A stretch of 64,000 nt of DNA from Candidatus Omnitrophota bacterium. GTDB lineage: Bacteria > Omnitrophota > Gorgyraeia > 2-01-FULL-45-10. The stretch spans positions 219,823 through 283,822 of the forward strand of contig JAMWCX010000003.1 of assembly GCA_023818895.1 (NCBI GenBank). The letters run 5' to 3'. A model generated the notes under the pieces. That model worked only from the letters and a program-made list of their open reading frames with translations, ran no database searches and was not told the origin of the DNA. The position numbers were made by a program, and so were the translations under genes. Numbering within the stretch: position 1 is the first letter of the stretch; the number at the start of each line of letters is the position of its first letter. Shown piece by piece: positions 27,546 through 59,928 of this stretch.

Positions 27546-27911
27546 TTATCCACAATAGTTCGGAGCAAATTCAAGGGAAATTCGGAGGTTATTCACAAGT
27601 TGTTCACAAGCCAAAATTGCCAAAATAGACGATATCACGCGCTATTATATTAAAATATGCTTTAGATTGCAAGAGAAAACATCCCTTGTAACAAAAAAGA
27701 AGGGTTTGATTTTGTCGCACAATAGAATTGCGTAAAAAGGTTATATAACAAAAGGCCTCCAAAGAGGTTAGTGAAAGGTAGTCAAAGACCTTAATCAAAA
27801 GGCGCAGCGATATTATTGTTGTAGATAAAAATTATACTAGACCGGGTAAATAATATTGACTCAACCTTTCTTTATGTTATAATCTACAACGCGAATTTTT
27901 AAAGGAGCGTT
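27546..27911. other. oriC / divergent dnaA-rpmH control region: DnaA boxes TTATCCACA (27546-27554), TTATTCACA (27589-27597), TTGTTCACA (27600-27608), TGTAGATAA (27820-27828) and an AT-rich putative DUE (~27640-27900)
   Basis: One perfect consensus DnaA box plus three 7-8/9 boxes within 366 nt between dnaA and rpmH. The window shows a complete gene-strand switch at this locus, and the surrounding gene order is the canonical one for an origin. Confidence 0.7.
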
Positions 27912-28049
27912 ATGAAATATACACTAAAACCCGGATCAAACATTAAGCGGAAGCGCACGCACGGTTTCCGAAAAAGGATGAAAAGCCGCTGGGGGCGCCA
28001 GGTTCTTTCAAGGCGCAGAAAAAAGGGCCGTCATAAACTGACTGTGTAA
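27912..28049 (+). CDS. rpmH: 50S ribosomal protein L34
   Basis: 45 aa [45 protein letters not shown], a textbook L34; too short for the ORF track. Confidence 0.85.
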
Positions 28050-28114
28050 TTGCCGTCGGCATATCAGAAAGGCCGCGCCCGGCAAAAGAGGCGCGGAAGG
28101 AAAGGTCTGGCAGG

Positions 28115-28474
28115 ATGATCTCCGACGGAGATTTCCGCAAAAAAGAGCGCATACTCAAGACGAGAGACTTTAGGATAGCGTATAAGAAAGGACGGTCTTT
28201 AAGAAAAGATGGACTTGTCCTTTATTTTCTTGCCAACGGTCTTAGTTATAATCGGGTGGGATTTTCAATAAGTTCCTCCACCGTAAAGTTAGCAACACTT
28301 CGTAACCGCATCCGGAGACTTTTCCGGGAAGTATATCGCAGAAAAAAAACCTCGATGAAGACCGCCTTTGATATTATATTAATAGTGAGAAAAAACCCAG
28401 GCAAGGCCACCTCATATAAATGGGCCGAAGAGACCTTTTCAGCGCTGCTGAAGCAAGCGGGGATAATGTTGTGA
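28115..28474 (+). CDS. rnpA: ribonuclease P protein component
   Basis: 119 aa, basic, RNR-motif region (…LRNRIRRLFRE…); classic rpmH-rnpA pair. Confidence 0.85.
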   Translation: MISDGDFRKKERILKTRDFRIAYKKGRSLRKDGLVLYFLANGLSYNRVGFSISSSTVKLATLRNRIRRLFREVYRRKKTSMKTAFDIILIVRKNPGKATSYKWAEETFSALLKQAGIML

Positions 28475-28677
28475 GAAAGGTCATTATTGAGGCAATAAAA
28501 TTTTATCGTAACTATTTGTCGTGTATGAATATACAATGTTGTAGATTTTATCCTTCCTGCTCAGAATATGCCATCGAAGCACTTCAAAAATATGGGGTTG
28601 TGAAAGGGTTATTTAAATCTATCGGCCGGATAACACGCTGCCATCCTTTTTGCAAAGGCGGCTATGATCCGGCCTGA
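28471..28677 (+). CDS. yidD: membrane protein insertion efficiency factor YidD (GTG start overlapping rnpA stop)
   Basis: 68 aa from GTG 28471: VRKVIIEAIKFYRNYLS…RFYPSCSEYAIEALQKYG…RCHPF, the canonical YidD motifs. Confidence 0.8.
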   Translation: MRKVIIEAIKFYRNYLSCMNIQCCRFYPSCSEYAIEALQKYGVVKGLFKSIGRITRCHPFCKGGYDPA

Positions 28678-28686
28678 CAGGACGAT

Positions 28687-30279
28687 ATGGAGAAAAGACT
28701 TATTCTAGCAATAGCGTTATCGATCTTCATAATAATGTCATTTCAGATAATGGCGCCGAAAGGCCCCCATTCCCCGTCGGTTACGGTTGTGACGAAAGAA
28801 GCACCGCCGACAGTTTTGCCGAAGGATACAATTATCAGCGCACCGTCGGCGGCAGAAGTAGCTATACAGGAGAAAGAGCTAAAGGTGGATACCGATCGTT
28901 ATATCTTAACCTTCAGCAATATGGGTGGCGCGATAAAAAATATATGGTTAAAGGAATATAAGGACATCCACACTGGAGGGCCTCTTTGGCTCGCCGACAT
29001 ACGAAATCCAAAAGAATATATATTCACTATATCAAGTGCCGATATCCCGGGTATTGACATAGCCGCCTATTCTCTAACAAGATCCGACAATACGATTACG
29101 TATTTTCTTTCCACTAAAGATTTTGAAATATCCAAGCGATATACATTACATAACTCCAAATATGGCATAGAGTTAGAAGTGTCGATAAGAAATATCTCCG
29201 ATTCGCCGCGGTCTTTCAATTATAATATAATCGGTGGGGCCGGAATAAATGAGACTAAACACGAAGACAAACGGTTCTTAGAAGTCACCTCGGTAGTGGA
29301 TGGGAAATACATCGGATTCAAAAGACCGAAGGATAAAAGGATAACAAATCTCGGCATTGTTGCATGGACAGCCCTGAAGAGCAAGTATTTTTCATTAATT
29401 CTCAAGCCTCTATTCACAACGAGAGGCCAGTTTTACAAAGAAGACAACACCGGCCTATTGACCATGGGAGTAGATGTCGGTGAAACGGTTATACAACCAA
29501 AATCCGTTTTAATTAATAAATATCTTCTATATGCGGGACCAAGCCATATACCAGCCTTAAAAGAATTCGGATACGGTTTAGAGTCGACGGTAAGCTATGG
29601 ATTCTTCGGCGGCATAAGCAAGGTAATGATATCGGTGATGAGATTTTTCCATTCGATAGTACAAAGCTGGGGACTATCGATAATACTACTATCCGTGTTT
29701 CTTAATTTTATTCTATTTCCTTTGACAATGAAGAGTTTCAGATCGATGCAAAAGATGCAGGAACTACATCCAGAAATGGAGAGATTGAAAAAGCAATATA
29801 AAGATAACCCACAAAAGCTGAATAAGGAGATAATGGATTTATACAGAAAGTACAACATCAATCCATTTAGTGGCTGTCTCCCCATTCTTCTGCAGATGCC
29901 GATATTCATAGCACTCTACTCAGCGCTAATGAGATCTATAGAACTTCGTAACGCCAGTTTTTTATGGATAAGAGACCTATCTGCTCCGGACGCTGTGAAA
30001 CTACCATTTGCGCTTCCTATAATCGGTAACAACATTAATATTCTCCCATTGGTAATGGTTCTGGCGATGGCGTTACAACAGAAGATCTCCACCAAATCTA
30101 TGGGCGGAGCAGTTACTGTTGAACAAAAAGAACAGCAAAGACTTATGATGATAATGATGCCTATCGTATTTGGGTTTGTATTTTATAATATGCCGTCAGG
30201 TCTAGTGTTATATTGGTTGGTCAATACGGCACTGACAATATTTGAGCAAGGGGTGATATTGAAAAAATCAACGACATAA
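28687..30279 (+). CDS. yidC: membrane protein insertase YidC
   Basis: 530 aa, N-terminal TM plus periplasmic domain, C-terminal five-TM Oxa1 core (…MQELHPEMERLKKQYKDNPQKLNKEIMDLYRKYNINP…). Confidence 0.9.
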   Translation: MEKRLILAIALSIFIIMSFQIMAPKGPHSPSVTVVTKEAPPTVLPKDTIISAPSAAEVAIQEKELKVDTDRYILTFSNMGGAIKNIWLKEYKDIHTGGPLWLADIRNPKEYIFTISSADIPGIDIAAYSLTRSDNTITYFLSTKDFEISKRYTLHNSKYGIELEVSIRNISDSPRSFNYNIIGGAGINETKHEDKRFLEVTSVVDGKYIGFKRPKDKRITNLGIVAWTALKSKYFSLILKPLFTTRGQFYKEDNTGLLTMGVDVGETVIQPKSVLINKYLLYAGPSHIPALKEFGYGLESTVSYGFFGGISKVMISVMRFFHSIVQSWGLSIILLSVFLNFILFPLTMKSFRSMQKMQELHPEMERLKKQYKDNPQKLNKEIMDLYRKYNINPFSGCLPILLQMPIFIALYSALMRSIELRNASFLWIRDLSAPDAVKLPFALPIIGNNINILPLVMVLAMALQQKISTKSMGGAVTVEQKEQQRLMMIMMPIVFGFVFYNMPSGLVLYWLVNTALTIFEQGVILKKSTT

Positions 30280-30364
30280 ACTTGACTTTTTGTTGAAAGT
30301 AGTGTAATCTTTTATCAAAATAATCAAAAGAATTTTCAGTGTTTCACGGGGAACATTTTTTATA

Positions 30365-31213
30365 ATGTCTAAAGTAATAGCTATATGCAACCAAAAAGGT
30401 GGCGTAGGCAAGACGACAACCGCTATTAACCTCGCGACATTTCTCGCATTCTCTGGTAAAAAGACGCTACTCGTAGATATTGACCCTCAGGGTAATGCCA
30501 CAAGCGGCCTCGGAATCAATAAGCACAATATTAAGACGAGCGTATACGATCTTCTTATTGAAGAAATCGATCCAAAGTCCATCTTTGTGACCAGCGGAAT
30601 AGATAATTTTATTCTGTTGCCATCAACACTTAGTCTTACTGGGGCTGAAGTTGAACTTGTTGGAGTGATGGGGCGCGAGTATCGACTTAAGAAAGCGCTA
30701 GCGGCTATTGCCGAAGACTTCGATTACATATTTATTGATTGTCCTCCATCATTAGGCCTTCTCACGATTAACGCACTTGCAGCAGCACATTCAGTATTGA
30801 TACCAATTCAATGTGAGTATTATGCTCTAGAAGGCTTGAGTCAGCTAATTAAAACTATAAATCTCGTCAAAGAAAATATAAATAACAGCCTTACCATAGA
30901 GGGTGTTTTGCTTACAATGGCAGATTATAGGACAAAATTGACTAACGAAGTGATAAATGAAGTAAGAAATTTTGTAAAAGGAAAAGTTTACAATACGGTT
31001 ATACCAAGAAATATTAAGCTTACTGAGGCGCCAGGTTTTGGTAAGCCTATCGCACTTTATGATAGGAATTCTATTGGATCACAAAAGTATCAAGAATTTG
31101 CAAATGAGTTATTAGGGGTTAAAAAAGAAACACAGCTTAACAGCATATCAGAAAATCATAACATCAATATTAATAATCAGTTAGAGAAAGTCGGAGACTT
31201 GGAGGTTAAATGA
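30365..31213 (+). CDS. parA: chromosome partitioning ATPase ParA/Soj
   Basis: 282 aa, deviant Walker A KGGVGKTT. Confidence 0.85.
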
Positions 31214-32070
31214 TGGAAAAGCGAGCCTTAGGAAGAGGATTGGAAGCTTTACTTACACCAAAGGCGGTTGAAACAGCAACAGCGGTATCGACAAACACAC
31301 AGGAACAGGTGTTGCAGATCCCATTGTCGCAGATAAAGATGAATAAATACCAGCCGCGGATAGCGTTTAACAGAGAAAAGCTCAACGAGCTCATTAATTC
31401 GATAAAGGAAAAGGGGGTTGTACAACCAGTTCTTGTTAGAAAGATACCAGATGGATATGAGTTGATAGCAGGAGAAAGACGACTGCGCGCTGTAAAGGAA
31501 TTGGGGCTCGATAAGATACCGGCGATAGTGAAGAACGTTTCCGACATTGACATGTTGGAAATATCGCTGATAGAGAATATACAAAGGGAAGAGCTCAACC
31601 CTATAGAAGAGGCTCACGCCTTCCAGAGGTTCGTGACCGAATTTAATTACACACAAGAGGATATAGCAAAAGTTCTATCAAAGGACCGATCAACAATAGC
31701 GAACACAATAAGACTTCTGGCCCTTCCCAAAAAAATACAGGATTTTATCGCCTCCAACACGATAACCGCTGGGCATGCCAAGGCGCTTCTCGGCCTTCCA
31801 TCTGAGATGGAGCAGCTCAGGGTGTGCAATCTTATAATAAAGAAAGGGCTTTCCGTACGAGAAACAGAGTCTATCGTTTCCAGGCGCTCCTTCGGGGAGC
31901 GCAAAAGCCCTCCACGTAAGGATCAGAATATAAGTGAGATAGAATCAAGCCTACAGCAGTTATTCGGAACGCGAGTGAGAATCATCCATGGCAAAAAGAG
32001 GGGGAAGATACAGATTGAATATTACTCACTCGAGGACATGAACCGCATCCTTGACCTACTCAAACGCTAA
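31210..32070 (+). CDS. parB: chromosome partitioning protein ParB/Spo0J
   Basis: 286 aa, ParB box GERRLRA, HTH; 4-nt overlap with parA. Confidence 0.85.
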
Positions 32071-39859: not shown

Positions 39860-40891
39860 ATGAAAGAAGACATCCGTCGCATAAAAGACGCGGCTATCGC
39901 AGAGATAGACGCAGCACCAGGTCCTGACGCTCTCGAAAGTATTCGTATAAAATATCTCGGCCGCAAGGGCATAATAACGGAGCTCTTTAAGAAGATGAGC
40001 TCCGTTCCCGCCGAAGAGAGGCCTCATCTTGGAAGCCTCATAAACGAAGTAAAAGACGAAGTTACCTGTGCGCTCGCCTCGAAAACCAAAGCCGTTTCGG
40101 GCTACGAGGAAGAGCATGCCGAAAAGATCGACGTTACACTTCCTGGCGTGCCGGTACGCGCCGGTAAGATACACCCCCTGACAAAAACGATTGATGAAAT
40201 ATGCGGTCTTTTCATTTCTCTTGGTTTCAGGGTAGTGGAGGGGCCGGAGATAGAGACCGAACATTATAACTTTGAGACTCTAAATATACCATTGGAACAT
40301 CCATCCCGCGACGCTTTCGATACTTTCTACCTTTCCCGAGAAAAGAGGTATCTCTTGAGAAGCCATACCTCACCTGTGCAGACCCGTTTCATGGAAAAAA
40401 ACTCACCGCCTTTTTCCATTATAGTGCCGGGGAAAGTCTTCAGACCCGACGCAACCGATGCCTCACATTCTTTTATGTTTCACCAGGTCGAGGGGTTGGT
40501 GGTAGGAGAAAAGGTACGTTTTTCCGATCTGAAAGGCATTCTTGAGATATTCGCAAGGCAGATGTTCGGCCGGAATACGCGTATGCGTTTCAGGCCGAGC
40601 TTTTTTCCATTTACGGAACCAAGCGCGGAAGTGGACATATCATGTATCCTTTGCGGCGGAAGAGAATTTACTGCCAAAAGATGTTCCATGTGCGGCGGCA
40701 AAGGATGGCTAGAGATACTCGGAGCCGGTATGGTGAACCCAAAGGTTTTCGAGGCCGTCGGATACGATACCGAGAGAGTGACTGGATTTGCCTTTGGAAT
40801 GGGTGTCGAAAGGATCGCTATCCTTAAGTACGGTATTACGGATATCAGATTATTTTTTGAGAATGATATCAGATTTTTGAGACAATTCTAA
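39860..40891 (+). CDS. pheS: phenylalanine--tRNA ligase alpha subunit
   Basis: 343 aa, class II motifs 2/3 (…FRPSFFPFTEPS…GMGVERIAILKYGI…). Confidence 0.9.
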   Translation: MKEDIRRIKDAAIAEIDAAPGPDALESIRIKYLGRKGIITELFKKMSSVPAEERPHLGSLINEVKDEVTCALASKTKAVSGYEEEHAEKIDVTLPGVPVRAGKIHPLTKTIDEICGLFISLGFRVVEGPEIETEHYNFETLNIPLEHPSRDAFDTFYLSREKRYLLRSHTSPVQTRFMEKNSPPFSIIVPGKVFRPDATDASHSFMFHQVEGLVVGEKVRFSDLKGILEIFARQMFGRNTRMRFRPSFFPFTEPSAEVDISCILCGGREFTAKRCSMCGGKGWLEILGAGMVNPKVFEAVGYDTERVTGFAFGMGVERIAILKYGITDIRLFFENDIRFLRQF

Positions 40892-40893
40892 TC

Positions 40894-42942
40894 ATGAGAA
40901 TCTCATACGACTGGTTAAAGAAATACGTAGATGTTAAGCTATCGGCCGAGAAGCTCGCTGATCTTTTGACAATGGGAGGGTTAAGCGTTGAATCTATCGA
41001 AAAGTTCGGAAACGATTATATCCTTGAGATAGAGATAACCGCCAATAGGCCTGACTGGCTTTCAATAATAGGTGTTGCAAGGGAGGTTGCTGCCATGACT
41101 GGAGCCCGCCTTGAAATACCGGCTGTAACGCAGCAACACCGCAGCCCTTCGAATAAAAAAGCTAAAGCTGTTTTTATAAAAGTTGAGGATAAGAAGCTCT
41201 GCCCGAGGTATACCGCGCGGCTGATAACCGATATTAAGGTGGCTCCCTCTCCGGCTTGGCTTAAGGCTCGACTCGAAGCCGTAGGCCTGAGAAGCGTTAA
41301 CAATATAGTTGACATTATAAACTTCTGCCTATTTGAAACAGGCGAACCCATGCATGCCTTCGACTTCGACAAAATCGCTGGCGGCCAGATAATAGTACGT
41401 AAAGCCCGCTCCGGAGAAAAGATAACGGTAATTGAGGGTGCGGAAAAGACCCTTGATGAGTCGGTTCTTGTGATAGCAGATAGCGATAAACCTATCGCGA
41501 TAGCCGGTGTGATGGGCGGCCTTAATACTGAAGTAACAGAATCTACAAAGAACATTCTTTTAGAGGCAGCTTTTTTTGATCCGATATCAATCAGGAGGAC
41601 ATGCCGCAAGCTCGGCATATCAACTGAATCAAGCTATAGGTTCGAAAGAGGCGTTGACCCCGAAAATATCGTATGTGCCTCTTACAGAGCTCTCGGACTG
41701 ATCCTTGAGCTCGCTGGCGGCCAACCAGGTGAATTTACAGATATCAACTATTCGCAAACACAAAAACGCATCATAGATCTCAGGCCGGAGAAAGTGAACG
41801 CCGTTCTAGGTATCGATATACCGGTTGAACGGATGAAAAAGATATTGATATCTTTGGGGATAGGCATCCCTATGGAGTCAAAGAGTAGACTTTCTTTGCA
41901 AGTCCCTTCTTTCAGGAATGATTTAAGATATGAGATCGATATAGTAGAAGAGATCTCAAGGATATTCGGATATCAGAACATACCTTCCACTATACCTTCT
42001 ATAGTAGAACAGCCCGTCAGGATGGAGAAGGAACTTTTGCTACGAGGTTCGGTACGCTCGGCCATAGCCGGCGCTGGGTGTGATGAAATAATAACATATA
42101 GTCTTCTTAGTAGAAAGTCTGTCGCCTCAGCAGGATTGGCCCCACAAGCCCTTGTTGATATCGAGAACCCCCTGACGAGCGAACAGGAGGTGATGCGACC
42201 AAGCCTTATTCCCGGGATGCTCGGCGCGATGGCGCGCAATATGAACAGGAAATTGAAAGACCTGAAACTTTTTGAGATCGGCAACATCTATCTGAAGAAA
42301 CCCGGAGGTGAATATTCTGAAAAAAATCATCTCTGTGTCGGAATAGCAGGCACTTCTTTTGCGCATTGGGCATCATCATCCAGACAGGCCGATTTCTTCG
42401 AGCTGAAAGGAATATTGGAGCGCCTGTTTGCCTGGCTCGGAATACGTGAGGCCGCCTTCCAACAAACAAGACATGAAAGTTTCGCACTGGCCGAATGCGC
42501 AAGCATAGAAATAGGCGGAAGGCCCATAGGGGTGATGGGAAAACTCGCCACAAGGGTGCTGACCTCTTTCGATATTAAGGAAGCCGTTTATCTGGCCGAG
42601 ATGAATCTGGAGGAACTCTTCAAATATGTACCAGTCGAAAAAAGATTTGAGGAATTGCCGCGATATCCTTCTGTATGGCGGGATATCTCTATCATAGTCG
42701 CTAAGGAGACAGTCAATGCCGATATTCTGTCGATCATGAAAAAGACCGCGGGCGCGCTCCTTAAAGATGCTTATCTTATCGATAGATATTCCGGAAAACA
42801 AGTGCCAGAAGGCAAGGTGAGCCTTACCTACAGGCTGGAATATCAGGATCCGACAAGAACTCTCGAAGAAAAATACATCTCAGATATACATTCCAAAGTA
42901 CTGCATTCTCTCGAAGAGAGATTTGGTGCGAAGCTGCGATAA
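40894..42942 (+). CDS. pheT: phenylalanine--tRNA ligase beta subunit (short form, apparently lacking the N-terminal OB-fold tRNA-binding B2 domain)
   Basis: 682 aa; B1 start MRISYDWLKKYV runs directly into the ILEIEITANRPD B3/4 region; B5, catalytic-like and C-terminal FDX-ACB domains present. Confidence 0.9.
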   Translation: MRISYDWLKKYVDVKLSAEKLADLLTMGGLSVESIEKFGNDYILEIEITANRPDWLSIIGVAREVAAMTGARLEIPAVTQQHRSPSNKKAKAVFIKVEDKKLCPRYTARLITDIKVAPSPAWLKARLEAVGLRSVNNIVDIINFCLFETGEPMHAFDFDKIAGGQIIVRKARSGEKITVIEGAEKTLDESVLVIADSDKPIAIAGVMGGLNTEVTESTKNILLEAAFFDPISIRRTCRKLGISTESSYRFERGVDPENIVCASYRALGLILELAGGQPGEFTDINYSQTQKRIIDLRPEKVNAVLGIDIPVERMKKILISLGIGIPMESKSRLSLQVPSFRNDLRYEIDIVEEISRIFGYQNIPSTIPSIVEQPVRMEKELLLRGSVRSAIAGAGCDEIITYSLLSRKSVASAGLAPQALVDIENPLTSEQEVMRPSLIPGMLGAMARNMNRKLKDLKLFEIGNIYLKKPGGEYSEKNHLCVGIAGTSFAHWASSSRQADFFELKGILERLFAWLGIREAAFQQTRHESFALAECASIEIGGRPIGVMGKLATRVLTSFDIKEAVYLAEMNLEELFKYVPVEKRFEELPRYPSVWRDISIIVAKETVNADILSIMKKTAGALLKDAYLIDRYSGKQVPEGKVSLTYRLEYQDPTRTLEEKYISDIHSKVLHSLEERFGAKLR

Positions 42943-43086: not shown

Positions 43087-43252
43087 AAAATCCCTGCGGT
43101 GCGCGTGATCGGAATGAAGAATCTTGAGCCATTAGCACTAAACTAGGGAGCCTAACTGAGCATACGCCTTGGCGTATGACCGAGGGCACCCACCTGTTCA
43201 TAACAGGGTCAAGATAATTCATATCACAACGGCATTGCGGGGATTTTTTATG
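43087..43252 (+). ncRNA. candidate structured RNA of unknown class (strand uncertain), closed by a 12-bp long-range helix AAAAAUCCCUGC/GCGGGGAUUUUU and followed by a U-tract
   Basis: Seen in sequence: 43087-43098 pairs with 43238-43249. Inside are the hairpins CATACGCC-UUGG-GGCGUAUG (43161-43178) and CCUGUU-CAU-AACAGG. The whole lies in a 457-nt gap with no ORF other than a spurious 79-aa reverse ORF. Confidence 0.25.
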
Positions 43253-43400: not shown

Positions 43401-44714
43401 ATGGACCTATTTGAGAAGAAGTCCAACGATACTCTAGATGAGCCGCTGGCGCTGAGGATGAGACCGAAGACACTCGATGATTTCGTAGGCCAAGATCACG
43501 TGTTGGGCAAGGATAAGCTACTGCGCCGCCTCATCGAGACCGACCGAATAATGTCTTTGATACTTTACGGCCCCCCAGGATGCGGGAAGACGACGCTCGC
43601 GCTTATTATAAGCGATAAGACAAGATCCCATTTTGAGCGCATAAATGCCGCTTCCCACAACGTCGCTGATATGAGGCGCATTATCGACGCGGCGAAACGC
43701 CGTCAGGCTATAGAAGGAAGGCGCACGATATTGCTCATCGACGAAATCCACCGTTTTAACAAGGCCCAGCAGGATGTCCTCATGCCCGATGTGGAGGCAG
43801 GCAATCCCGTCCTCATAGGCACTACTACTCATAACCCATTTTTTTATGTAAATTCCGCGCTTCTTTCGCGCTCTCAAGTCTTTGAATTCAAGAAGCTCTC
43901 TGATGAAGACGTAGTTATTATTTTAAAACGCGCCCTTGAAGATAAAGAACGCGGCCTTGGCAAGATGGCGATAGATATGGAAGAAGAGGCGCTTAAACAC
44001 CTCGCCAAAGTTTCAGAGGGCGATGCCAGGCGGGCCCTCTCGGCGCTGGAAGTCGGTTGCCTTTCGACAAAGGCCGGTAAGGATAAAAAGATACATTTCA
44101 CAGTCAAGGTAGCCGAGGAATCGATACAGAAGAAGGCCGTGGTATATGACAAGGACGAGGATGGCCACTACGATACGATATCGGCGTTCATAAAGTCTAT
44201 GCGGGGCTCCGATCCGGACGCTGTGTTATACTGGCTCGCTAAAATGATATATGCCGGCGAGGATCCGAGGTTCATTGCTCGCCGCATAGTGATTTGCGCC
44301 GCCGAGGATGTAGGCAACGCAGATCCTCAAGCGCTCGTTGTGGCTAACGCTGCCCTCCAGGTCTCGGAATTTGTCGGCATGCCGGAAGCGAGGATTCCTC
44401 TTGCCCAGGCCGCGGTCTATGTGGCGTGTGCCCCAAAATCAAACGCCGCGTATCTTGGCATCGAAGCCGCACTTAAGGATGTTGAAGAGGGGCGACTACT
44501 TGACGTCCCAGATCATCTTAAGGATGCAACCCTCGATGGAACCGTGTTTGGTCACGGCAAGGGCTATAAATACGCACATGATTTCAAGGATCATTACGTA
44601 AAACAGCAGTATAAGCCATCGGATACCAAGTATTACATCCCGACGAATATGGGCTATGAAGCGAAAATAAAAGAGTGGCTAGAAAAGCTGAAGAATACAA
44701 CCCCGTCCCCTTAA
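43401..44714 (+). CDS. rarA: replication-associated recombination protein A (AAA+ ATPase RarA/MgsA)
   Basis: 437 aa, Walker [10 protein letters not shown], Walker [13 protein letters not shown]-terminal MgsA domains. Confidence 0.85.
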
Positions 44715-44748: not shown

Positions 44749-45741
44749 ATGACCAAAAAAGCGGTCGTTCTATTCTCTGGAGGACTAGACTCGATACTGG
44801 CAACACGGCTTATGATGGAGCTGGGCATAGAGGTTGCGTGCGTTCACTACTATATCGAGTTTGCTGCCTGCGGAGGAGGGGAAACATCGGCTGTTAATGC
44901 CGCTAAAATGCTCGGCGTTCCGATCAAGATATTCGATATCACTGCAGAATATCTTGAAATGTTCAGAAATCCAAAACATGGTTATGGCGCGAATATAAAT
45001 CCCTGCATCGACTGCAAGATACTTATGCTTAAGAAGGCAAAGGAATATATGGCCGAAATTGGCGCTTCGTTTCTTGTGACCGGCGAGGTCCTCGGCGAAA
45101 GGCCGATGTCGCAGCGCAGAGATGCTCTAAACATTATAGAAAAAAACAGCGGCGTGCGCGGCATTCTCCTTAGGCCGCTTTCAGCAAAGTTGCTGGTGCC
45201 GACTATTCCGGAAGCAAAAGGCGTCGTTGACCGCGAAAAGCTTCTCGATATACAGGGCCGTAGCCGCAAGATACAGATGGAGCTTGCCGCGCGTTTCGGC
45301 ATAAAGGAATATCCAAATCCATCAGGAGGATGTCTTCTCACCGACCCAGGTTTTACAAAAAGAGTCAAAGACCTCATAGCGCACAACGACCTGAGCCTTG
45401 AAAGCCTGCGGCTTTTGAAGGTTGGCCGCCACTTCAGGCTGTCAGACAAGTCGAAACTTATCATAGGACGAGACAAAAATGAGAACAAATATATGCAGAG
45501 CCTCGCCAAAGACGGCGATGTCTGCATAAGGCTTAAAGACAGGCAGGGCCCATTTTCGATAATTCGCGGCTTTGCCGACGAGCCTCTTATAAAACGGGCA
45601 TGTGAAATAGTGGCGCAGCATACTAAATTCCGAAGCGAAGAATTTCTCAATATCCTTTGGTGGCGAAAAGGGGGTGATGAAAGGCAGATAGTTAAGGCCA
45701 GGGCGGCGTCCGCCGAAGAAATCAGCAAAAGCAGGATTTGA
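44749..45741 (+). CDS. ThiI-like PP-loop ATP pyrophosphatase (no THUMP/rhodanese domains) with uncharacterised C-terminal domain; putative sulfurtransferase
   Basis: 330 aa; PP-loop LFSGGLDS at residues 8-15; LVTGEVLGERPMSQRRDALNII…ILLRPL aligns with the ThiI catalytic region (VVTGEALGQVSSQTL…ILRPL); CIDCK motif. Confidence 0.5.
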   Translation: MTKKAVVLFSGGLDSILATRLMMELGIEVACVHYYIEFAACGGGETSAVNAAKMLGVPIKIFDITAEYLEMFRNPKHGYGANINPCIDCKILMLKKAKEYMAEIGASFLVTGEVLGERPMSQRRDALNIIEKNSGVRGILLRPLSAKLLVPTIPEAKGVVDREKLLDIQGRSRKIQMELAARFGIKEYPNPSGGCLLTDPGFTKRVKDLIAHNDLSLESLRLLKVGRHFRLSDKSKLIIGRDKNENKYMQSLAKDGDVCIRLKDRQGPFSIIRGFADEPLIKRACEIVAQHTKFRSEEFLNILWWRKGGDERQIVKARAASAEEISKSRI

Positions 45742-45766
45742 CATATCGATTGACATATGTTCTAAT
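45738..45766 (+). promoter_or_regulatory. putative sigma70-type promoter for the riboswitch-thiE-thi4 transcript (-35 TTGACA 45738-43, 17-nt spacer, -10 TCTAAT 45761-66)
   Basis: Hexamers and spacing seen in sequence; the -35 is part of a direct repeat TTGACATAT-CGA-TTGACATAT. Confidence 0.4.
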
Positions 45767-45778
45767 ATACACGCAAGT

Positions 45779-45867
45779 TCAGGGGAGGTTGTAAGGCAGC
45801 CTGAGAGTTCCGCGCAATAAGCGGATTACCCGAAGGACCTGATCCGGATAATGCCGGCGTAGGGAAG
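45779..45867 (+). promoter_or_regulatory. TPP (THI-box) riboswitch aptamer
   Basis: …AGGGGAGG…CAGCCUGAGAG…AUUACCCGAAGGACCUGAUCCGGAUAAUGCCGGCGUAGGGAAG… matches the conserved CUGAGA and ACCUGAUC.GGAUAAUGCC.GCGUAGGGAA cores of RF00059; upstream of thiE. Confidence 0.85.
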
Positions 45868-45880
45868 AAACATCAAGGCT

Positions 45881-45906
45881 CTTATGCATCGGCATAAGGG
45901 TTTTTT
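45881..45906 (+). terminator. riboswitch expression-platform intrinsic terminator (CUUAUGC-AUCG-GCAUAAG + GGGUUUUUUAUUU)
   Basis: 7-bp perfect hairpin followed by U6 immediately after the aptamer; the ORF-track ATG at 45884 lies inside this hairpin. Confidence 0.6.
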
Positions 45907-45931
45907 ATTTACAGGCGAGGTGAGCGCTATA

Positions 45932-46576
45932 ATGAGAAAAATAAAAGACCGTAGCCTATACCTTGTGATAAGCGAGGAATATTCGGATGGCAGGCCGGCA
46001 ATTTGGATCGCCGAAAGAGCGGTTGCCGGCGGTGTCGATATAATCCAGATGCGGGAAAAGAATAAATCGATGCAGGAGCTTGTTGAAATCGGCAGCAAGA
46101 TGCGTGATATCTGCCAGAAATCAAGCGCCCTCTTCATCGTAAACGACGATCCGACGCTCGCTCTACAACTGCGCGCAGATGGGGTTCATCTTGGCCAAGA
46201 AGATATAGCCCGTTTTCCGATAAAAAAAGCGAGAGATATTCTCGGCCCCGAAAGGATAATAGGCGTTTCCACGCACTCAATTGAGGAGGCGAAAGAAGCC
46301 TGCGCAAAAGAAGTGGATTATATAGCTTTTGGGCCTATATTTCCAACCGAGGCCAAGGGCTATCATATAGGCAAAGAAGGCATAAAAGAGGTCTTGGCGC
46401 TGGTAAAAAAACCCGTATTTTTCATAGGGGGCATAAATCTGTCAAATATAGCAGAAGTCCTGGCTGAGGGAGGTCGTAATATCGCTCTCATAAGACCGAT
46501 AACTCAGGCGGTGGATGTTGAGTCTGCGGTAAAAAAGTTTAAGAAGGCTCTTATACGGCCGGAAGGAGCAAGATGA
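45932..46576 (+). CDS. thiE: thiamine-phosphate synthase (start re-called to ATG 45932, downstream of the riboswitch terminator)
   Basis: 215 aa from [16 protein letters not shown]…; GAGGT RBS 8 nt upstream; ThiE motifs (…VQLREK-like IQMREK, …GVHLGQED…, …VSTH…). Confidence 0.8.
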
Positions 46577-47346
46577 AACTGGATGAGATAAAGATATCTA
46601 AAGCGATAATAGAAACCTATAAGGACAAGCTTGTGTCCGCCCTGGACATAGATGTAGCTATAGTTGGGGCCGGCCCCGCCGGCATGGTTTGTGGTTATTA
46701 TCTCGCCAGGAATGACAGGAGGGTTGCGATATTCGAGCGGAAGCTTTCCGTCGGAGGCGGGATGTGGGGCGGCGGCATCATGTTCAATGAGATAGTGGTG
46801 CAGGAAGCGGCGAAGAGGATACTGGACGAATTCGGCGTCAGGACGAAAAGCTACGAGAAAGGCTATTATACCGCCGATTCAATCGAAGCCGTCTCTACCA
46901 TATGCTCAAGGACCGTCAAGGCAGGGGTCAGAATATTTAATCTCATGAGCGTCGAGGATGTGATGGTAAGGAAGAACAGAATCTGCGGGCTTGTTCTGAA
47001 CTGGACAGCCGTTGAAATAGCGGCCTTGCATGTTGACCCCATCTCAATGGCGGCGCGCTTTGTAGTAGATGCGACAGGACACGCCGCGGAGGTTGCCCGC
47101 ATAGCAGAAAAAAAGTCCGGACTGAAATTAAAGACAAAAACAGGCAGGACAATAGGCGAAGGCTCCATGTGGGCGGATGTCGGCGAGGATACGATCGTGA
47201 AAAACTCTAAAGAGGTTGCCCCAGGCCTTTATACCTGCGGCATGTGCGCCAACGCTGTTCTCGGCGGTCCGCGCATGGGACCAATATTTGGCGGGATGCT
47301 TCTTTCAGGCGAGAAAGTGGCAAAGGATATCCTGCAGCGTTTATAA
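46573..47346 (+). CDS. thi4: thiazole synthase Thi4 (archaeal-type, His in place of the yeast suicide Cys: [11 protein letters not shown])
   Basis: 257 aa; FAD dinucleotide fold [10 protein letters not shown], Thi4 family pattern; 4-nt overlap with thiE. Confidence 0.85.
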
Positions 47347-47370: not shown

Positions 47371-47398
47371 TTGACAAAAATGAATATTGGTGTATAAT
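47371..47398 (+). promoter_or_regulatory. near-consensus sigma70 promoter (-35 TTGACA 47371-76, 16-nt spacer, -10 TATAAT 47393-98) for the Rrf2-cysK operon
   Basis: Perfect hexamers seen in sequence, 88 nt upstream of the Rrf2 GTG start. Confidence 0.65.
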
Positions 47399-47486: not shown

Positions 47487-47951
47487 GTGAAGATAACATA
47501 TAAAGGCGATTACGCTCTCAAGGCTATATTCCAACTCGCCCTGCACTATGGTAAGTCGGATGAGTGTGTGATGTCCATTTCCGAAATAGCCAAACTTGGT
47601 GATATGCCTGTTAAATTTCTTGAGCAGATACTCCTTGCGCTTAGAAGGGGCGGTTTCGTGAAATCAAGACGCGGAGTGAAAGGCGGTTTTCTTTTGGCCA
47701 GGCACCCGAAAGAGATAAAGGTGGGTGAAGTGATAAGGTTTATGGAGGGGCCCATAGAGCCCATAGCCTGCGTTGAAAAGGAATCATACAAAGGATGTAA
47801 GGATGTTGCGGGATGCATATTTCGCGATATTTGGAAAGAGGTTAAAAATTCTGTATGCGCCATAGTTGATGCGCTGACCTTCGAAGACCTGATAATTCGT
47901 TATAAGGAAAAGAGCTTAAAAAAATCATCCATGCTTGAATACAATATATAG
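47487..47951 (+). CDS. Rrf2-family transcriptional regulator (CymR/IscR-like, Cys-x8-Cys-x5-Cys; GTG start)
   Basis: 154 aa; N-terminal w[21 protein letters not shown]…, putative Fe-S ligands in [18 protein letters not shown]. Confidence 0.8.
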
Positions 47952-47959: not shown

Positions 47960-48889
47960 ATGAGTATGAATATAGCCAACAATGTAATAGAACTTATAGG
48001 GAAAACGCCCATGGTGCGTTTAAGGCGCCTTATTACCTCCGGTATGGCCGAGGTTGTTGCTAAGCTTGAGTATTTCAACCCAGGCGGAAGCGTAAAAGAT
48101 AGGATATGCCTCGCCATGATAGAGGACGCAGAGAAAAAGGGGCTTCTCAAAAAGGGCGCGACCATAATAGAGCCAACGAGCGGTAATACGGGCATAGGCC
48201 TTGCCATGATAGCCGCCGCAAAAGGATATAAGTGCCTTCTTACCATGCCAGACACCATGTCAGTGGAGCGCCGCCAGATTCTCAGATCATACGGCGCTGA
48301 GATAGTGTTAACACCGGGCACTGAAGGAATGAAGGGCGCTGTGAAGAAGGCGGAAGAATTATGCAAAAAAACAGCCGACAGCTTCATGCCTCAGCAGTTC
48401 GAAAATCCGTCGAACCCGGCCGCCCACCGGCGTACCACCGCCGTAGAGATACTTGAGCAGACAAAGGGAATGCTCGATGCTTTTGTGGCAGGAGTTGGGA
48501 CAGGGGGAACCATTACCGGTGTCGGTGAAGTCTTGAAAAAGCACAATGCCGGCATAAAAATAGTCGCTGTTGAACCGAAAAAAAGCCCGGTACTATCAGG
48601 CGGACCGGCCGGACCTCACCGTATACAGGGTATAGGCGCAGGTTTTATTCCGCGCGTCCTTAACCGTAGCGTTATTGACAGAATAATCCAGGTGGAAGAT
48701 AATGATGCGTTTCTTGTCGCAAAGGCCTTGGCCAAAGACGAAGGCCTTTTTGTGGGGATATCGAGCGGCGCCGCCGTTTACGCAGCTCTTAAGATAGCAA
48801 AGGAGATGGGTGAAGGTAAGAGGGTGGTCGCTATTCTACCGGATACAGGCGAACGTTATCTATCAATGGAAGAGCATATTAAGGCATAG
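47960..48889 (+). CDS. cysK: cysteine synthase A (O-acetylserine sulfhydrylase)
   Basis: 309 aa; PLP-lysine motif [27 protein letters not shown]. Confidence 0.9.
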
Positions 48890-48915: not shown

Positions 48916-50133
48916 ATGGCAAAGACGATAAAAGAGATAAACGAAAAGATAAAACGCGGCGAGGCGGTAGTAGTGACAGCCGAAGAGGTCATCGACCTTG
49001 TCGAAAAGAAGGGCCTTAAAGAAACGGCAAGGCATGTCGATGTCGTTACAACAGGGACATTCGGGCCGATGTGCTCGTCCGGCGTTTACTTGAATGTGGG
49101 TCACGCCAAACCGAAGATAAAGTTAGGAGGAGGTCATGTGACTTTAAACGGCGTGCCGGCGTATACGGGCTTCGCCGCCGTGGATATTTACATAGGCGCA
49201 ACCGCTATGCCTGACGACGACCCGCGCAATAAGGTCTATCCAGGCGAGTTTAGATATGGAGGCGGTCATGTAATAGAAGAGCTTGTGTCAGGTAAGGATA
49301 TAGTGCTCGAAGGCGCCGCTTACGGCACAGACTGTTATCCGCGCAAGCATATAAAGACTTATATAAATATAAAGGACTTGAACGAGGCCGTGCTTTTGAA
49401 TCCGCGCAACTGCTACCAGAACTACAATGTGGCGGTGAATGCATCTGACTCAAAGACAATCTACACATACATGGGCGCGCTCAAACCGGGCTTCGGCAAC
49501 GCTAACTATTGTTCGGCAGGGCAGCTTTCGCCGCTTCTTAAAGATCCGCTATACAGGACCATCGGAGTGGGTACCAGGATATTTCTTGGCGGCGGCGTCG
49601 GCTATGTCTACTGGCATGGCACCCAGCATAATCCTTCGGTGAAGCGCAAGGATAACGGTGTTCCGCAGGTGCCCGCCGGCACAATCGCAGTCATGGGCGA
49701 TCTCAAGCAGATGAGCCCTTCCTGGCTTAGGGGAATATCGTTTCAGGGATACGGCGTTAGCCTTACCGTCGGTCTCGGAATTCCGATACCTATCCTAAAT
49801 GAGGATGTGCTCAAGGATGCGGCCATAAAGGATGAAGATATCTGGACCCAAATCGTCGACTATAGCGAAGACTATCCACAGGGAAAACCAAACTCGCTCG
49901 GCGAGGTGAACTATAAACAACTCAAGAGCGGCTCTATTAATATTAAAGGTAAAGAGGTCCCGACGTCTTCTCTTTCGAGCTATGTGAAAGCGCTCGAAAT
50001 CGCAGAGGAACTCAAAAAATGGATAAAGGATAGAAAGTTTTTTCTGACAGAATATGTTCAAAGGCTGCCTGGAGCCGAATCAGGGTATTCTTTTAAGCCG
50101 CTGAAAGAAAGACCAGTTAAAGAGGAGGAATAA
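48916..50133 (+). CDS. DUF39/COG1900-family protein (putative sulfide-incorporating homocysteine biosynthesis enzyme)
   Basis: 405 aa; family assignment by recalled similarity to the methanogen COG1900 protein pattern, lacking CBS domains; immediately downstream of cysK. Confidence 0.5.
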   Translation: MAKTIKEINEKIKRGEAVVVTAEEVIDLVEKKGLKETARHVDVVTTGTFGPMCSSGVYLNVGHAKPKIKLGGGHVTLNGVPAYTGFAAVDIYIGATAMPDDDPRNKVYPGEFRYGGGHVIEELVSGKDIVLEGAAYGTDCYPRKHIKTYINIKDLNEAVLLNPRNCYQNYNVAVNASDSKTIYTYMGALKPGFGNANYCSAGQLSPLLKDPLYRTIGVGTRIFLGGGVGYVYWHGTQHNPSVKRKDNGVPQVPAGTIAVMGDLKQMSPSWLRGISFQGYGVSLTVGLGIPIPILNEDVLKDAAIKDEDIWTQIVDYSEDYPQGKPNSLGEVNYKQLKSGSINIKGKEVPTSSLSSYVKALEIAEELKKWIKDRKFFLTEYVQRLPGAESGYSFKPLKERPVKEEE

Positions 50134-50144: not shown

Positions 50145-51050
50145 ATGGAACATTTTTTTCACATATTTTTACATTATCTTGCAGAGATACTACCGGCACT
50201 CGCTATAGGATTTTTCATAAGCGGCCTGGTACATGAACTTGTCCCAGAAGAATCGGTTCTGAAATACCTGGGCTCGGGTGGCATAAAACCGATACTGGCC
50301 TCCACCGTTATCGGAACAATCCTTCCGGTCTGCTGTATTGGGAGCCTCCCGATAGCGGTTAGTTTCTACAAAAAAGGAGCTAAGCTCGGTCCTGTGCTCG
50401 CCTTTCTCGTTGCTACCCCTGCAACGTCTGTGAGCGCGCTACTCGTAGCCTACAGTGTCTTGGGCCCGCTTTTTACAGTCTATATTTTCTTCGCGGTAAT
50501 ATTAATGGGTGTCGCTATGGGATTTATAGGTGACGCTATAAGGTATACGCCAAGGACTGCGCCTGCCAAAGAAGTCTGCCCACATTGCGAGATAGACTCA
50601 ACGCATATTCACAAACACATGAAAAAGTCGCCGAAAGAGAGAATCGTCTCTGCTCTTAAATATGCGTACTTAGAATTGCCAAGGGAAATAGGCCTAGAGC
50701 TTCTAGCCGGAATACTGCTCGCCGCATTTGTGGCCACTTTTGTGCCTGTGGGGCGGCTTATAAAGATATATCTCAGCGGACCGCTAGGGTACGCCTTTGC
50801 TATCATATTTGGCATAGTTATGTATATTTGCTCAACCGCCACAGTGCCTCTGGTAGACAGCCTCATGAGACAGGGAATGAATTCCGGCGCCGGCATGACG
50901 CTTCTTCTTATCGGCCCGGTCACAAGCTATGGAACTATTCTTGTCCTTAGGAAAGAATATGGCCCGAAGGTTCTTGCCATATTTATCATTTCGCTTATAA
51001 TACTATCATTGATACTGGGTTTAGGCTTTTACGCTATAAGACCCACTTGA
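50145..51050 (+). CDS. DUF318/COG0701-type permease with paired Cys (LPVCCIGSLP), ArsP-like
   Basis: 301 aa, 8-9 predicted TM helices, conserved CC in a TM segment. Confidence 0.5.
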   Translation: MEHFFHIFLHYLAEILPALAIGFFISGLVHELVPEESVLKYLGSGGIKPILASTVIGTILPVCCIGSLPIAVSFYKKGAKLGPVLAFLVATPATSVSALLVAYSVLGPLFTVYIFFAVILMGVAMGFIGDAIRYTPRTAPAKEVCPHCEIDSTHIHKHMKKSPKERIVSALKYAYLELPREIGLELLAGILLAAFVATFVPVGRLIKIYLSGPLGYAFAIIFGIVMYICSTATVPLVDSLMRQGMNSGAGMTLLLIGPVTSYGTILVLRKEYGPKVLAIFIISLIILSLILGLGFYAIRPT

Positions 51051-54187: not shown

Positions 54188-54412
54188 ATGACGGACGATA
54201 AGATAAAGAAAGCACTCGAGAAGATCAGGACAGCGCTTCAGCAAGACGGCGGTGATATAGAACTTGTGAGCGTAGAGGATGGGGTGGTCAAGGTGCGCCT
54301 TGTGGGCGCTTGTGCGGGTTGTCCGATGAGCCAGATGACGCTCGCGAACTTCGTCGAAACTAAACTTAAGGAAGCGGCGCCGGAGATAAAGCGAGTCGAG
54401 CCCGTGCAATAA
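54188..54412 (+). CDS. nfu: NifU-like C-terminal domain protein (Nfu-type Fe-S carrier)
   Basis: 74 aa, CAGCPMS (CxxC) motif in the …VKVRLVGACAGCPMSQ… context. Confidence 0.7.
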   Translation: MTDDKIKKALEKIRTALQQDGGDIELVSVEDGVVKVRLVGACAGCPMSQMTLANFVETKLKEAAPEIKRVEPVQ

Positions 54413-58268: not shown

Positions 58269-58293
58269 ATAGTTGACAAAAATAGTCAGGTAT
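58269..58293 (+). promoter_or_regulatory. IscR type-1 operator ATAGTTGACAAAAATAGTCAGGTAT overlapping the -35 (TTGACA 58274-79) of the iscRSU promoter
   Basis: 24/25 match to the type-1 IscR consensus ATASYYGACTRWWWYAGTCRRSTAT (consensus recalled from the E. coli literature); internal TGAC…GTCA dyad; 17 nt upstream of the iscR start. Confidence 0.55.
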
Positions 58294-58309
58294 GATATCT
58301 TATTTACGT

Positions 58310-58750
58310 ATGAAGCTTTCAACGAAATCTACATACGGATTAAGGGCGATGCTTGCGATTGCTATGAAAGATAAGAATACGGCAACGTCTATAAATGATA
58401 TATCAGGCGCCGAAGGCATATCGGTGGCGTATCTTGAGCAGCTTCTCAACAGGCTCAGAAGGCATGGGCTTGTCGAGAGCGTCCGTGGTCCAAAAGGCGG
58501 TTATATATTATCAAGGCGCCCTTCTGAGATAACCGTCGCTGACATAGTAAAGACGCTCGAAGGCAATATTTATCCGGTACACTGTGTATCACCGAAGAAC
58601 GGCCCTTTGAGCGCCTGCTCTAGAGGAGCGTCATGCGTTCCGAAAATAGTATGGCACAAACTAGCCAGGGCCATAAGCGATTGTCTTGAATCCATCACCC
58701 TGGAAGATCTGTGCGCCGAAGCGATAAGGATTAAACGAAGAAAATCTTAA
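58310..58750 (+). CDS. iscR: Rrf2-family Fe-S regulator IscR (start re-called to MKLSTKSTYG)
   Basis: 146 aa from 58310; wHTH and Cys-x10-Cys-x5-Cys-x6-His (HCVSPKNGPLSACSRGASCVPKIVWH); directly upstream of iscS-iscU. Confidence 0.8.
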   Translation: MKLSTKSTYGLRAMLAIAMKDKNTATSINDISGAEGISVAYLEQLLNRLRRHGLVESVRGPKGGYILSRRPSEITVADIVKTLEGNIYPVHCVSPKNGPLSACSRGASCVPKIVWHKLARAISDCLESITLEDLCAEAIRIKRRKS

Positions 58751-58758
58751 GGAATACC

Positions 58759-59928
58759 ATGCGAAAAGTATACCTTGATAATAACGCCACCACGAGGATG
58801 CGTGAAGAAGTTCTTGAGGCTATGCTACCATATCTAAAGGATATCTACGGAAATGCCTCAAGCGTTCACCAATTCGGCCGAGCGGCGCGCGCGGCACTTG
58901 ACAATGCGCGTAACCAGGTCGCCTCATTTCTTGGGGCAGCAAGCCCTGAAGAGATAATATTTACCTCCGGCGGAACAGAGTCAGACAACCTGGCGATAAA
59001 AGGCGTAGCACACGCAATGCGCTCAAAAGGAGATCACCTCATCACAACCGCAATAGAGCACAGCGCTGTTTTAAATACTTGCCGGGCGCTCGAGAAAGAT
59101 GGCTATAAGGTTACATATCTGCCTGTAGACGAATACGGCTTGGTTTCAGTGGATAGCTTGCGTAAGGCTATAGGCCCCCAAACAGTACTTATTAGCATAA
59201 TGTATGCCAACAATGAGGTTGGAACGATCGAGCCGATAACCGAACTCGCTGAGGTGGCAAAAGAAAGAGGGGTTTATTTCCATACGGACGCGGTGCAGGC
59301 ACTAGGAAAGATATCTTTTGACCTTAGTTCTCTTCCGGTGGACCTTTTGTCGATGTCCGGCCACAAGATTTATGGCCCGAAGGGCGTGGGAGTTCTTTAT
59401 ATAAGGAAGGGAACACGTATAGATGCCATTGCTCACGGCGGCCATCATGAGATGAATAAAAGGGCCGGTACCGAAAATGTGCCTGCCATTGTAGGGCTTG
59501 GCAGGGCTTGTGAACTCGCCAAAAAAGAACTGCCAGACGAGTGGCGGAAGTTGATAGCGCTTCGTGACAGGTTATACCAGGGCATAATGTCAAAGATACC
59601 GCACGTTAGTCTGTTCGGACATCCGGAAAAGCGGCTTCCCAATACCCTAAATGTCGGATTCAAATATCTTGAAGGGGAGTCAATCCTTCTCAATCTCGAC
59701 ATGGAGGGCATAGCGGTCTCCACAGGCTCAGCCTGCACTTCCGGCACCCTTGAGCCTTCGCACGTTCTAACCGCTATGGGCATAGACCCGGCGGACGCTC
59801 AAGGGGCGATACGGTTTTCTCTCGGCAGGGACAATACAGAGGAGGACATTGATTACGTTCTTACGATGCTGCCTCCTATAATACAGAGACTAAGGGATAT
59901 GTCGCCTCTTTACGAGAAAGGAAATTAA
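58759..59928 (+). CDS. iscS: cysteine desulfurase (NifS/IscS)
   Basis: 389 aa; PLP Lys in SGHKIYGPKG, active-site loop SGSACTS. Confidence 0.9.
   Translation: MRKVYLDNNATTRMREEVLEAMLPYLKDIYGNASSVHQFGRAARAALDNARNQVASFLGAASPEEIIFTSGGTESDNLAIKGVAHAMRSKGDHLITTAIEHSAVLNTCRALEKDGYKVTYLPVDEYGLVSVDSLRKAIGPQTVLISIMYANNEVGTIEPITELAEVAKERGVYFHTDAVQALGKISFDLSSLPVDLLSMSGHKIYGPKGVGVLYIRKGTRIDAIAHGGHHEMNKRAGTENVPAIVGLGRACELAKKELPDEWRKLIALRDRLYQGIMSKIPHVSLFGHPEKRLPNTLNVGFKYLEGESILLNLDMEGIAVSTGSACTSGTLEPSHVLTAMGIDPADAQGAIRFSLGRDNTEEDIDYVLTMLPPIIQRLRDMSPLYEKGN

Follow-up and report, generated by a model that had tools for sequence, protein, structure and literature searches.

A His-type Thi4 thiazole synthase and a predicted tRNA thiolase of the ThiI+NFACT-R family at a sulfur-use locus of Candidatus Omnitrophota

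Introduction

Plant THI4 destroys itself at each turnover, and catalytic non-Cys THI4s are wanted for crop engineering. E. coli ThiI, for its part, has a dual role, serving both the formation of 4-thiouridine at position 8 of tRNA (s4U8) and thiamine synthesis, the latter requiring its rhodanese domain and ThiS. Here, we analyze a 64,000-nucleotide stretch of a Candidatus Omnitrophota genome (contig JAMWCX010000003.1; hereafter the window), in which the gene for a 330-residue ThiI-like PP-loop protein (44749-45741, + strand) lies upstream of a thiamine pyrophosphate (TPP) riboswitch operon that encodes ThiE and the thiazole synthase Thi4 (257 residues; 46573-47346, + strand), and we compare both proteins and their surroundings with the closest described systems.

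The ThiI+DUF814 architecture was described in 2014 and predicted to stand in for THUMP-ThiI as the tRNA 4-thiouridine synthase of organisms that lack the latter, its distribution being nearly mutually exclusive with that of THUMP-ThiI (PMC4075521). The motifs listed for it are a CxxC, an internal Cys, GRxRxxQ and two Arg residues of the NFACT-R domain, located before the domain's first strand and its first helix, and in the same study Burroughs and Aravind connected AMMECR1 with NFACT RNA modification (PMC4075521). TtuI of M. maripaludis provides an experimental point of reference, as a rhodanese-less enzyme whose CXXC+C residues bind a catalytic [4Fe-4S] cluster and that accepts Na2S as the donor in vitro (PMC9825150). 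Among THI4s, 171 of the 199 surveyed prokaryotic non-Cys enzymes have His at the donor position, and the residue that replaces the donor Cys was judged to be without a catalytic role; His-type enzymes use sulfide, and the reaction requires neither an adenylation step nor an adenylating enzyme (PMC8454699).

The PP-loop protein

By its domains and motifs, the 330-residue protein belongs to the ThiI+NFACT-R (ThiI+DUF814) family. ThiI is the top-scoring family for its PP-loop domain (residues 3-144; PF02568, 4.6e-11), with MnmA, LarE and QueC scoring lower, and an NFACT-R_2 domain (PF18297, 7.7e-20) spans residues 226-327 (45424-45729, + strand). Neither a THUMP nor a rhodanese domain was found in the protein by Pfam and NCBIfam searches, the PP-loop domain beginning at residue 3. 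An earlier sequence-only reading of this DNA had described a ThiI-like protein of 330 residues devoid of both domains, which these searches bear out; the C-terminal domain that it had called unknown is the NFACT-R_2 domain. The family profile (alignment A1) also matched the NFACT-R domain of RqcH (residues 460-535, 1.8e-6) and B. anthracis ThiI, and Foldseek matched the C-terminal domain to the C-terminal domain of FBPS and to RqcH. Against the PDB, Foldseek returned generic PP-loop and NFACT-R matches and no full-length analogue.

Every motif listed by Burroughs and Aravind is present and invariant in the alignment, so that the likeness to ThiI+DUF814 extends from the architecture, with neither THUMP nor rhodanese, to the CxxC with an internal Cys, the GRxRxxQ motif and the two NFACT-R Args. 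The CxxC is formed by Cys86 and Cys89 (45004-45015, + strand), GRxRxxQ reads GRSRKIQ (G170-Q176), and Arg227, Arg230 and Arg241 are invariant in the NFACT-R region, the two listed Args being Arg227 and Arg241. Equally invariant is SGGLDS, the ATP pyrophosphatase signature of the PP-loop (residues 10-15; 44776-44793, + strand). Cys195 (45331-45333) completes a CXXC+C arrangement which, as a sequence pattern, is that of the [4Fe-4S]-dependent ThiI/TtuI enzymes. In the AlphaFold 2 model (predicted local distance difference test, pLDDT, 86), the sole segments below 50 are the loops bearing Cys41 and Cys195; the cluster-ligand loop of M. maripaludis TtuI was reported to behave in a like manner (PMC9825150).

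At E≤1e-30 the family counts 978 representatives of uniform length (about 330-345 residues), and the same two-domain architecture was observed in all 120 homologues among the matches listed. The nearest of these originate from Candidatus Omnitrophota metagenome-assembled genomes (MAGs), the best relative being 76-79% identical. The 2014 prediction differs from the present case in its neighbor, TusA, in whose place we find rarA, thi genes, cysK/hcyBio, IscS, MnmA and LarE, and in its phyletic range, as Omnitrophota lie outside the phyla listed at the time (PMC4075521).

TtuI of M. maripaludis and P. furiosus is likewise a rhodanese-less, ThiI-type PP-loop enzyme with CXXC+C and a third Cys on a flexible loop (PMC9825150). 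Unlike the window protein, however, these enzymes carry NFLD and THUMP domains, and the spacing between the CxxC and the third Cys is 80 residues, compared to 106 here. The window protein further has a fourth invariant Cys (Cys41), unlike TtuI, and cluster binding in the ThiI+NFACT-R family is a prediction. With E. coli ThiI, the window family shares the ThiI-like PP-loop and genomic ties to tRNA thiolation and thiamine genes; the rhodanese domain and ThiS, on which the thiamine role of the E. coli enzyme is based, were not found in the protein and in the window, respectively. The protein is possibly Fe-S and sulfide dependent, and its NFACT-R_2 domain is predicted to be an RNA-binding module in place of THUMP.

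Thi4 and the riboswitch operon

Thi4 contains a full-length family domain (PF01946, 2.7e-80, residues 9-239; TIGR00292, 314.9 bits versus a cut-off of 148.3), and its nearest solved relative is the catalytic T. ammonificans THI4 (TaTHI4; 7RK0, 56% identity). In HMMER and our own alignments, the equivalent of yeast Cys205, the second C of QCCMDP, is His153 in AALHVDP (codon 47029-47031), which directly precedes VDP just as Cys205 precedes MDP, and as seen in SCMDP of Arabidopsis THI1. His occupies the donor position in 78 of the 80 closest metagenomic relatives. Asp155 (47035-47037) and His170 (47080-47082), both invariant in the Thi4 alignment (A2), correspond to the metal ligands Asp160 and His175 of TaTHI4 (7RK0), the latter being the axial ligand (PMC8454699), and the equivalent of His170 is also present in Cys-type enzymes (yeast, TTGHDGP; Arabidopsis, SCGHDGP). 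As judged from these alignments, Thi4 is a His-type, non-Cys thiazole synthase. The sequence-only reading had arrived at the same class, and the comparison with yeast Cys205 that it proposed yields a non-Cys enzyme with His153, but the motif that it quoted (residues 164-174) contains His170, the counterpart of the TaTHI4 metal ligand His175, rather than the donor-position residue. Thi4 homologues have also been labeled ribose-1,5-bisphosphate isomerase (PDB titles 4Y4M, 4Y4N), an assignment that we rejected in view of the riboswitch and thiE context.

The closest characterized non-Cys enzymes, M. jannaschii Thi4 (PDB 4Y4M) and TaTHI4 (PDB 7RK0), belong to the same fold family, and their Asp/His metal ligands are kept here. 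The window enzyme resembles the methanococcal proteins in having His at the donor position, where TaTHI4 has Met, and its context is anaerobic and sulfide-assimilating, as is that of non-Cys THI4s, with activity predicted from sequence. Unlike the 4Y4M and 7RK0 systems, it is encoded in a riboswitch-thiE-thi4 operon. Among the annotated genes at 43.4-52.5 kb and some downstream, none of the TRASH or cobalt/nickel kind (cf. Joshi et al.) was identified, no targeted search having been made.

The TPP riboswitch aptamer (45771-45883, + strand; RF00059, 61.9 bits versus a gathering score of 54.3, E 9.8e-10) is situated between the PP-loop gene and thiE and is followed by a terminator-type expression platform (45875-45912, + strand; 13-bp stem and T-run). 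thiE, encoding thiamine phosphate synthase (45884 or 45932 to 46576, + strand; TMP-TENI 1.5e-53; TIGR00693, 188.6 bits versus a cut-off of 145.1), has a stop codon that overlaps the start of thi4. Because the first ATG of its open reading frame (ORF), at 45884, falls inside the terminator stem, the true start is probably the ATG at 45932, which would give 214 residues and has a GAGGTGAG ribosome-binding site ahead; thiE homologues, 208-214 residues in length, match this version.

We infer that the region consists of three co-directional units, since the riboswitch splits the PP-loop gene from thiE and a consensus sigma-70 promoter (47371-47398, + strand; 12/12 matches) precedes rrf2. rarA/mgsA, encoding an AAA+ ATPase (43401-44714, + strand; MgsA_C 1.9e-67), would form the first unit with the PP-loop gene, from which it is separated by 34 nt on the same strand; the riboswitch, thiE and thi4 would form the second. 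The third comprises rrf2 (47487-47951, + strand; PF02082 7.1e-32), whose product, an Rrf2-family regulator, carries a three-Cys cluster motif and has CymR as its best named NCBIfam model (99.8 bits, under the cut-off), followed by cysK for O-acetylserine sulfhydrylase, which converts sulfide to cysteine (47960-48889, + strand; TIGR01139, 468.9 bits versus a cut-off of 350.95), the gene for a HcyBio/DUF39 homocysteine-biosynthesis sulfur-incorporation enzyme (48916-50133, + strand; PF01837 3.5e-155), and that for an ArsP_1-type permease of the SO_0444/SaoE-like efflux family (50145-51050, + strand; PF03773 9.6e-45; NF033936, 192.8 bits, under the cut-off). The three units share a sulfur-use theme and are not a single pathway. 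This layout agrees with the sequence-only reading in that the PP-loop gene is co-directional with rarA and ends upstream of the riboswitch, outside its control, and in that sulfide-assimilation genes (rrf2, cysK, HcyBio) follow thi4. It departs from that reading in that the PP-loop gene and thi4 are not direct neighbors, the riboswitch and thiE standing between them.

No match above noise to thiS, thiG, thiH or thiF homologues was found by tblastn in the 64-kb window, nor to LarE, NIL-ferredoxin, DUF6775 or the radical S-adenosylmethionine (SAM) enzyme discussed below. The Thi4 and ThiSGHF routes look like interchangeable modules at one locus, because the window is without thiS, thiG, thiH and thiF, whereas in its close relatives the corresponding site behind the equivalent PP-loop gene is occupied by thiE-thiS-thiG-thiH-thiF. 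Thiazole is very probably made by the sulfide-dependent Thi4 route at this locus. A sulfide-based route in place of ThiS/ThiF/ThiG/ThiH had been proposed in the sequence-only reading, and the non-Cys Thi4, the riboswitch, thiE and the lack of thiSGHF in the window support that proposal. Its implication that the PP-loop protein takes part is not supported, as this protein groups with a predicted tRNA-modification family, an outcome that the reading itself had counted against the idea.

In the proposed operation of the second unit, transcription would start from its own promoter, and high TPP would cause the intrinsic terminator to form and shut the operon off. Thi4, with His153 at the position of the Cys of the suicide enzymes, would turn over many times, converting NAD, glycine and free sulfide to ADP-thiazole, and ThiE would couple the thiazole half to the pyrimidine half. 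The rrf2-cysK-hcyBio-permease unit would fix sulfide into cysteine and homocysteine.

Genomic neighborhoods

Our neighborhood survey took in 80 genome loci at 44-76% identity (about 600 family loci were matched), originating from Omnitrophota, Thermodesulfobacteriota, Planctomycetota, Nitrospirota, Bathyarchaeia and others, which we grouped into 42 lineage clusters by single linkage at 60% identity; individual loci are cited by L numbers. Neighbors of the PP-loop gene included cysK/hcyBio in 12 clusters, thi genes in 6 and IscS in 5. The order pheS-pheT-6S-rarA-PP-loop-thi is common to the window and L001-L008, and the position of the 6S RNA gene between pheT and rarA is kept in L001-L004 and L008. 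rarA lies upstream of the PP-loop gene in 17 Omnitrophota-type loci, the two genes overlapping in L001 and L008.

IscS adjoins the PP-loop gene in several loci, and Thermodesulfobacteriota show the string rrf2-cysK-hcyBio-NIL/ferredoxin-mnmA-larE-PP-loop. Directly upstream of the PP-loop gene, a TudS-type 2-/4-thiouracil desulfidase (PF04463, 3.5e-38) is encoded in L055 (5444-5902) and L069 (before 6001), which represent an actinomycete MAG and Desulfovirgula. These are distant lineages, and the adjacency provides independent support for a thiouridine link. Downstream, a TadA-like deaminase is found in L060 and L061. The gene for an AmmeMemoRadiSam radical SAM enzyme (TIGR04337, 343.9 bits) directly follows the PP-loop gene, often overlapping it, in nine genome loci; its coordinates are 6987-7997 in L057, 7016-8029 in L067 and 6966-8006 in L068, and it also follows the PP-loop gene in L038, L056, L063, L066 and L073, as well as in L083, L086, L088 and L102. 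This adjacency may be a second tie between AMMECR1-type and NFACT systems. A TusA or IscS neighbor is a contextual rather than a strict feature of the family. The nearest IscS gene in the window (58759-59928) is 13 kb from the PP-loop gene.

Linkage with thiamine genes takes several forms. Close relatives show the string PP-loop-thiE-thiS-thiG-thiH-thiF, with gaps of 7-52 nt in L002, L003 and L008. No TPP riboswitch was found at E≤0.1 in L002, L003, L004 or L008; one precedes thi4 in L001, L025 and L046, and thiE in L006. The Thermodesulfobacteriota loci L017 (3955-8621), L037 (290-6237) and L040 (4811-8651) have the order PP-loop-thi4-DUF6775 with a Cys-type Thi4 (ITCVDP), preceded by iscS or mnmA-larE and with no TPP riboswitch detected. 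DUF6775, a probable metallopeptidase, is always paired with Cys-type Thi4 in these three loci. His-type thi4 occurs as PP-loop-cysK-thi4 in L045 and, with the radical SAM gene and in some cases pncA intervening, as PP-loop-rSAM-(PncA)-thi4 in L057, L068, L086, L088 and L102.

The order is reversed in L025 (54-2375) and L046 (5004-10213), where riboswitch, Cys-type thi4 and PP-loop gene follow one another and nothing resembling a promoter or terminator was seen between the genes. In L025, a terminator and a fresh promoter come after the PP-loop gene, and in L046 the unit extends into mnmA-nadA-iscS. Judging from this arrangement, the TPP regulon may include the PP-loop gene in both loci.

As a reciprocal test, we inspected 80 metagenome loci centered on close Thi4 relatives. 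Five of them contained the PP-loop gene, one with the synteny of the window and four with the rSAM-PncA arrangement, and most of those with 8-kb flanks were without it. cysK/hcyBio, which thus also stand beside thi4 relatives elsewhere, were near thi4 in six of these 80 loci. The nicotinamidase gene pncA (NF008623, 189 bits) is immediately upstream of His-type thi4 in L057 (7955-8593) and L068 (8839-9435), and a nicotinamidase gene directly precedes thi4 in at least eight Thi4-centered loci (L082, L084, L086, L088, L091, L098, L102 and L103), which fits a recycling of the nicotinamide released from NAD by Thi4. Joshi et al. do not mention an operon linkage of PP-loop and thi genes, and the term "ThiI" is absent from the text of their paper (PMC8454699).

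Possible functions of the PP-loop protein

We consider it probable, with some reserve, that the locus combines three sulfur-use units in which the PP-loop protein thiolates tRNA as a ThiI+NFACT-R enzyme and Thi4 depends on sulfide. tRNA thiolation is favored because the neighbors in relatives suit it, namely IscS, MnmA, TudS and the TadA-like deaminase. In this mechanism, the NFACT-R domain would hold the tRNA in the stead of THUMP, and the SGGLDS PP-loop would adenylate a uridine, most likely U8, at its C4 oxygen. A hydrosulfide on a [4Fe-4S] cluster bound by Cys86, Cys89 and Cys195, or else a persulfide derived from IscS, would then supply the sulfur to yield 4-thiouridine. The locus would thus gather sulfur-consuming beside sulfur-supplying enzymes, which fits an anaerobe living on sulfide.

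Several points weigh against this assignment. The tRNA s4U function of the family goes back to the 2014 prediction, and full-text literature searches found no experimental study of ThiI+NFACT-R proteins. The window protein scores far under the cut-off of the curated ThiI model (TIGR00342; 46.8 versus 264.5 bits). For TusA, the neighbor that had backed the 2014 prediction, a strict regular expression, which could miss weak relatives, matched no CPxP motif in either the window or any of the 80 loci. For a pure tRNA enzyme, the thi linkage in 6 of 42 clusters and the riboswitch units of L025 and L046 are unexpected. Finally, an Omnitrophica THI4 complemented E. coli poorly or not at all (PMC8454699), and the catalytic competence of the Omnitrophota Thi4 clade is, given this result, an assumption.

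The thiamine linkage is the starting point for three other explanations. That the PP-loop protein acts in thiazole synthesis, alone or besides tRNA thiolation in the manner of the dual E. coli ThiI, for example by passing cluster-bound sulfide or a persulfide to Thi4, appears unlikely to us, even though the linkage is operon-tight and recurs in the several arrangements described above, and an Omnitrophica THI4 was inactive on its own in E. coli. The Thi4 reaction has no adenylation step (PMC8454699), the protein bears an RNA-binding-type domain, its gene lies outside the riboswitch unit in the window, and most Thi4 loci with long flanks do without it. Moreover, it is linked to Cys-type Thi4, His-type Thi4 and ThiSGHF alike, a pattern better suited to a shared sulfur supply or compact genomes than to a dedicated partnership, and cysK/hcyBio are commoner neighbors than thi genes. 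Taken together, the thi linkage is lineage-restricted, non-specific for the His type and chemically needless for Thi4. A broader proposal, in which ThiI+NFACT-R is an Fe-S sulfur-transfer enzyme that serves both tRNA and Thi4 and makes adjacent Cys-type Thi4s catalytic, would explain the presence of the PP-loop gene in TPP-riboswitch units (L025, L046) and the PP-loop-thi4-DUF6775 operons; we regard it as very unlikely. Even fainter is the prospect that the PP-loop gene adjoins thiE-thi4 simply through the inherited gene order of one Omnitrophota clade, devoid of functional meaning. The synteny shared with L001-L008, the exchange of thi4 for thiSGHF while the PP-loop gene stayed, and a promoter, riboswitch and terminator separate from the PP-loop gene would all be consistent with such inheritance, but other arrangements recur in other clades and in Thermodesulfobacteriota, and the linkage is therefore not a single inherited accident.

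A different question is whether the RNA substrate is tRNA U8 at all. THUMP directs enzymes to tRNA positions 6, 8 and 10 (PMC9825150), NFACT-R is unrelated to THUMP and is found in the ribosome-associated RqcH, and the AmmeMemoRadiSam enzyme adjacent in nine loci recalls the proposed tie of AMMECR1 to NFACT RNA modification (PMC4075521). The protein might accordingly thiolate, or modify via adenylation, another tRNA position or rRNA. We judge this improbable, as the near mutual exclusion with THUMP-ThiI argues for functional equivalence (PMC4075521), ThiI is the nearest PP-loop family, and the TudS-type desulfidase is adjacent in two distant lineages. Thiolation of tRNA, most likely at U8, is thus the function we prefer for the PP-loop protein.

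Significance

Both Thi4 and the PP-loop protein are further members of families already described, and the locus changes no current view. Modestly new are the neighborhood map across Omnitrophota and Thermodesulfobacteriota and the apparent inclusion, in some loci, of the ThiI+NFACT-R gene in the TPP regulon; the family also gains examples from Omnitrophota. Natural partners and contexts of non-Cys THI4s are useful to the crop-engineering effort. The ThiI+NFACT-R family, with about a thousand clusters at 50% identity in anaerobic bacteria and some archaea, is uncharacterized twelve years after its prediction, and its neighbors (IscS, MnmA, LarE, TudS, cysK/hcyBio, thi genes and the AmmeMemoRadiSam enzyme) offer concrete candidates for experiments.

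Other features of the window

Upstream of rarA, the window contains pheS (39860-40891, + strand), pheT (40894-42942, + strand) and, between pheT and rarA, a 6S RNA gene (43088-43247, + strand; 72.4 bits). Downstream of the sulfur-use units, a NifU-like domain protein is encoded at 54194-54409, and a second Rrf2 regulator is directly followed by the IscS/NifS cysteine desulfurase mentioned above (together 58292-59928). The NifU-like protein and the desulfurase, 13 kb off, might supply the PP-loop enzyme with sulfur. Further away, 19388-32070 resembles a replication-origin neighborhood, with gyrA, gyrB, dnaN and dnaA on the - strand and rnpA, yidC, parA and parB on the + strand, as named from ORF starts only, and the sign of the GC skew flips within it, near 27-28 kb. 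At the beginning of the window (1-6567), a - strand series of ORFs resembles V/A-type ATPase subunits, again by ORF starts only, and is followed by pyrimidine biosynthesis genes (6581-14230).

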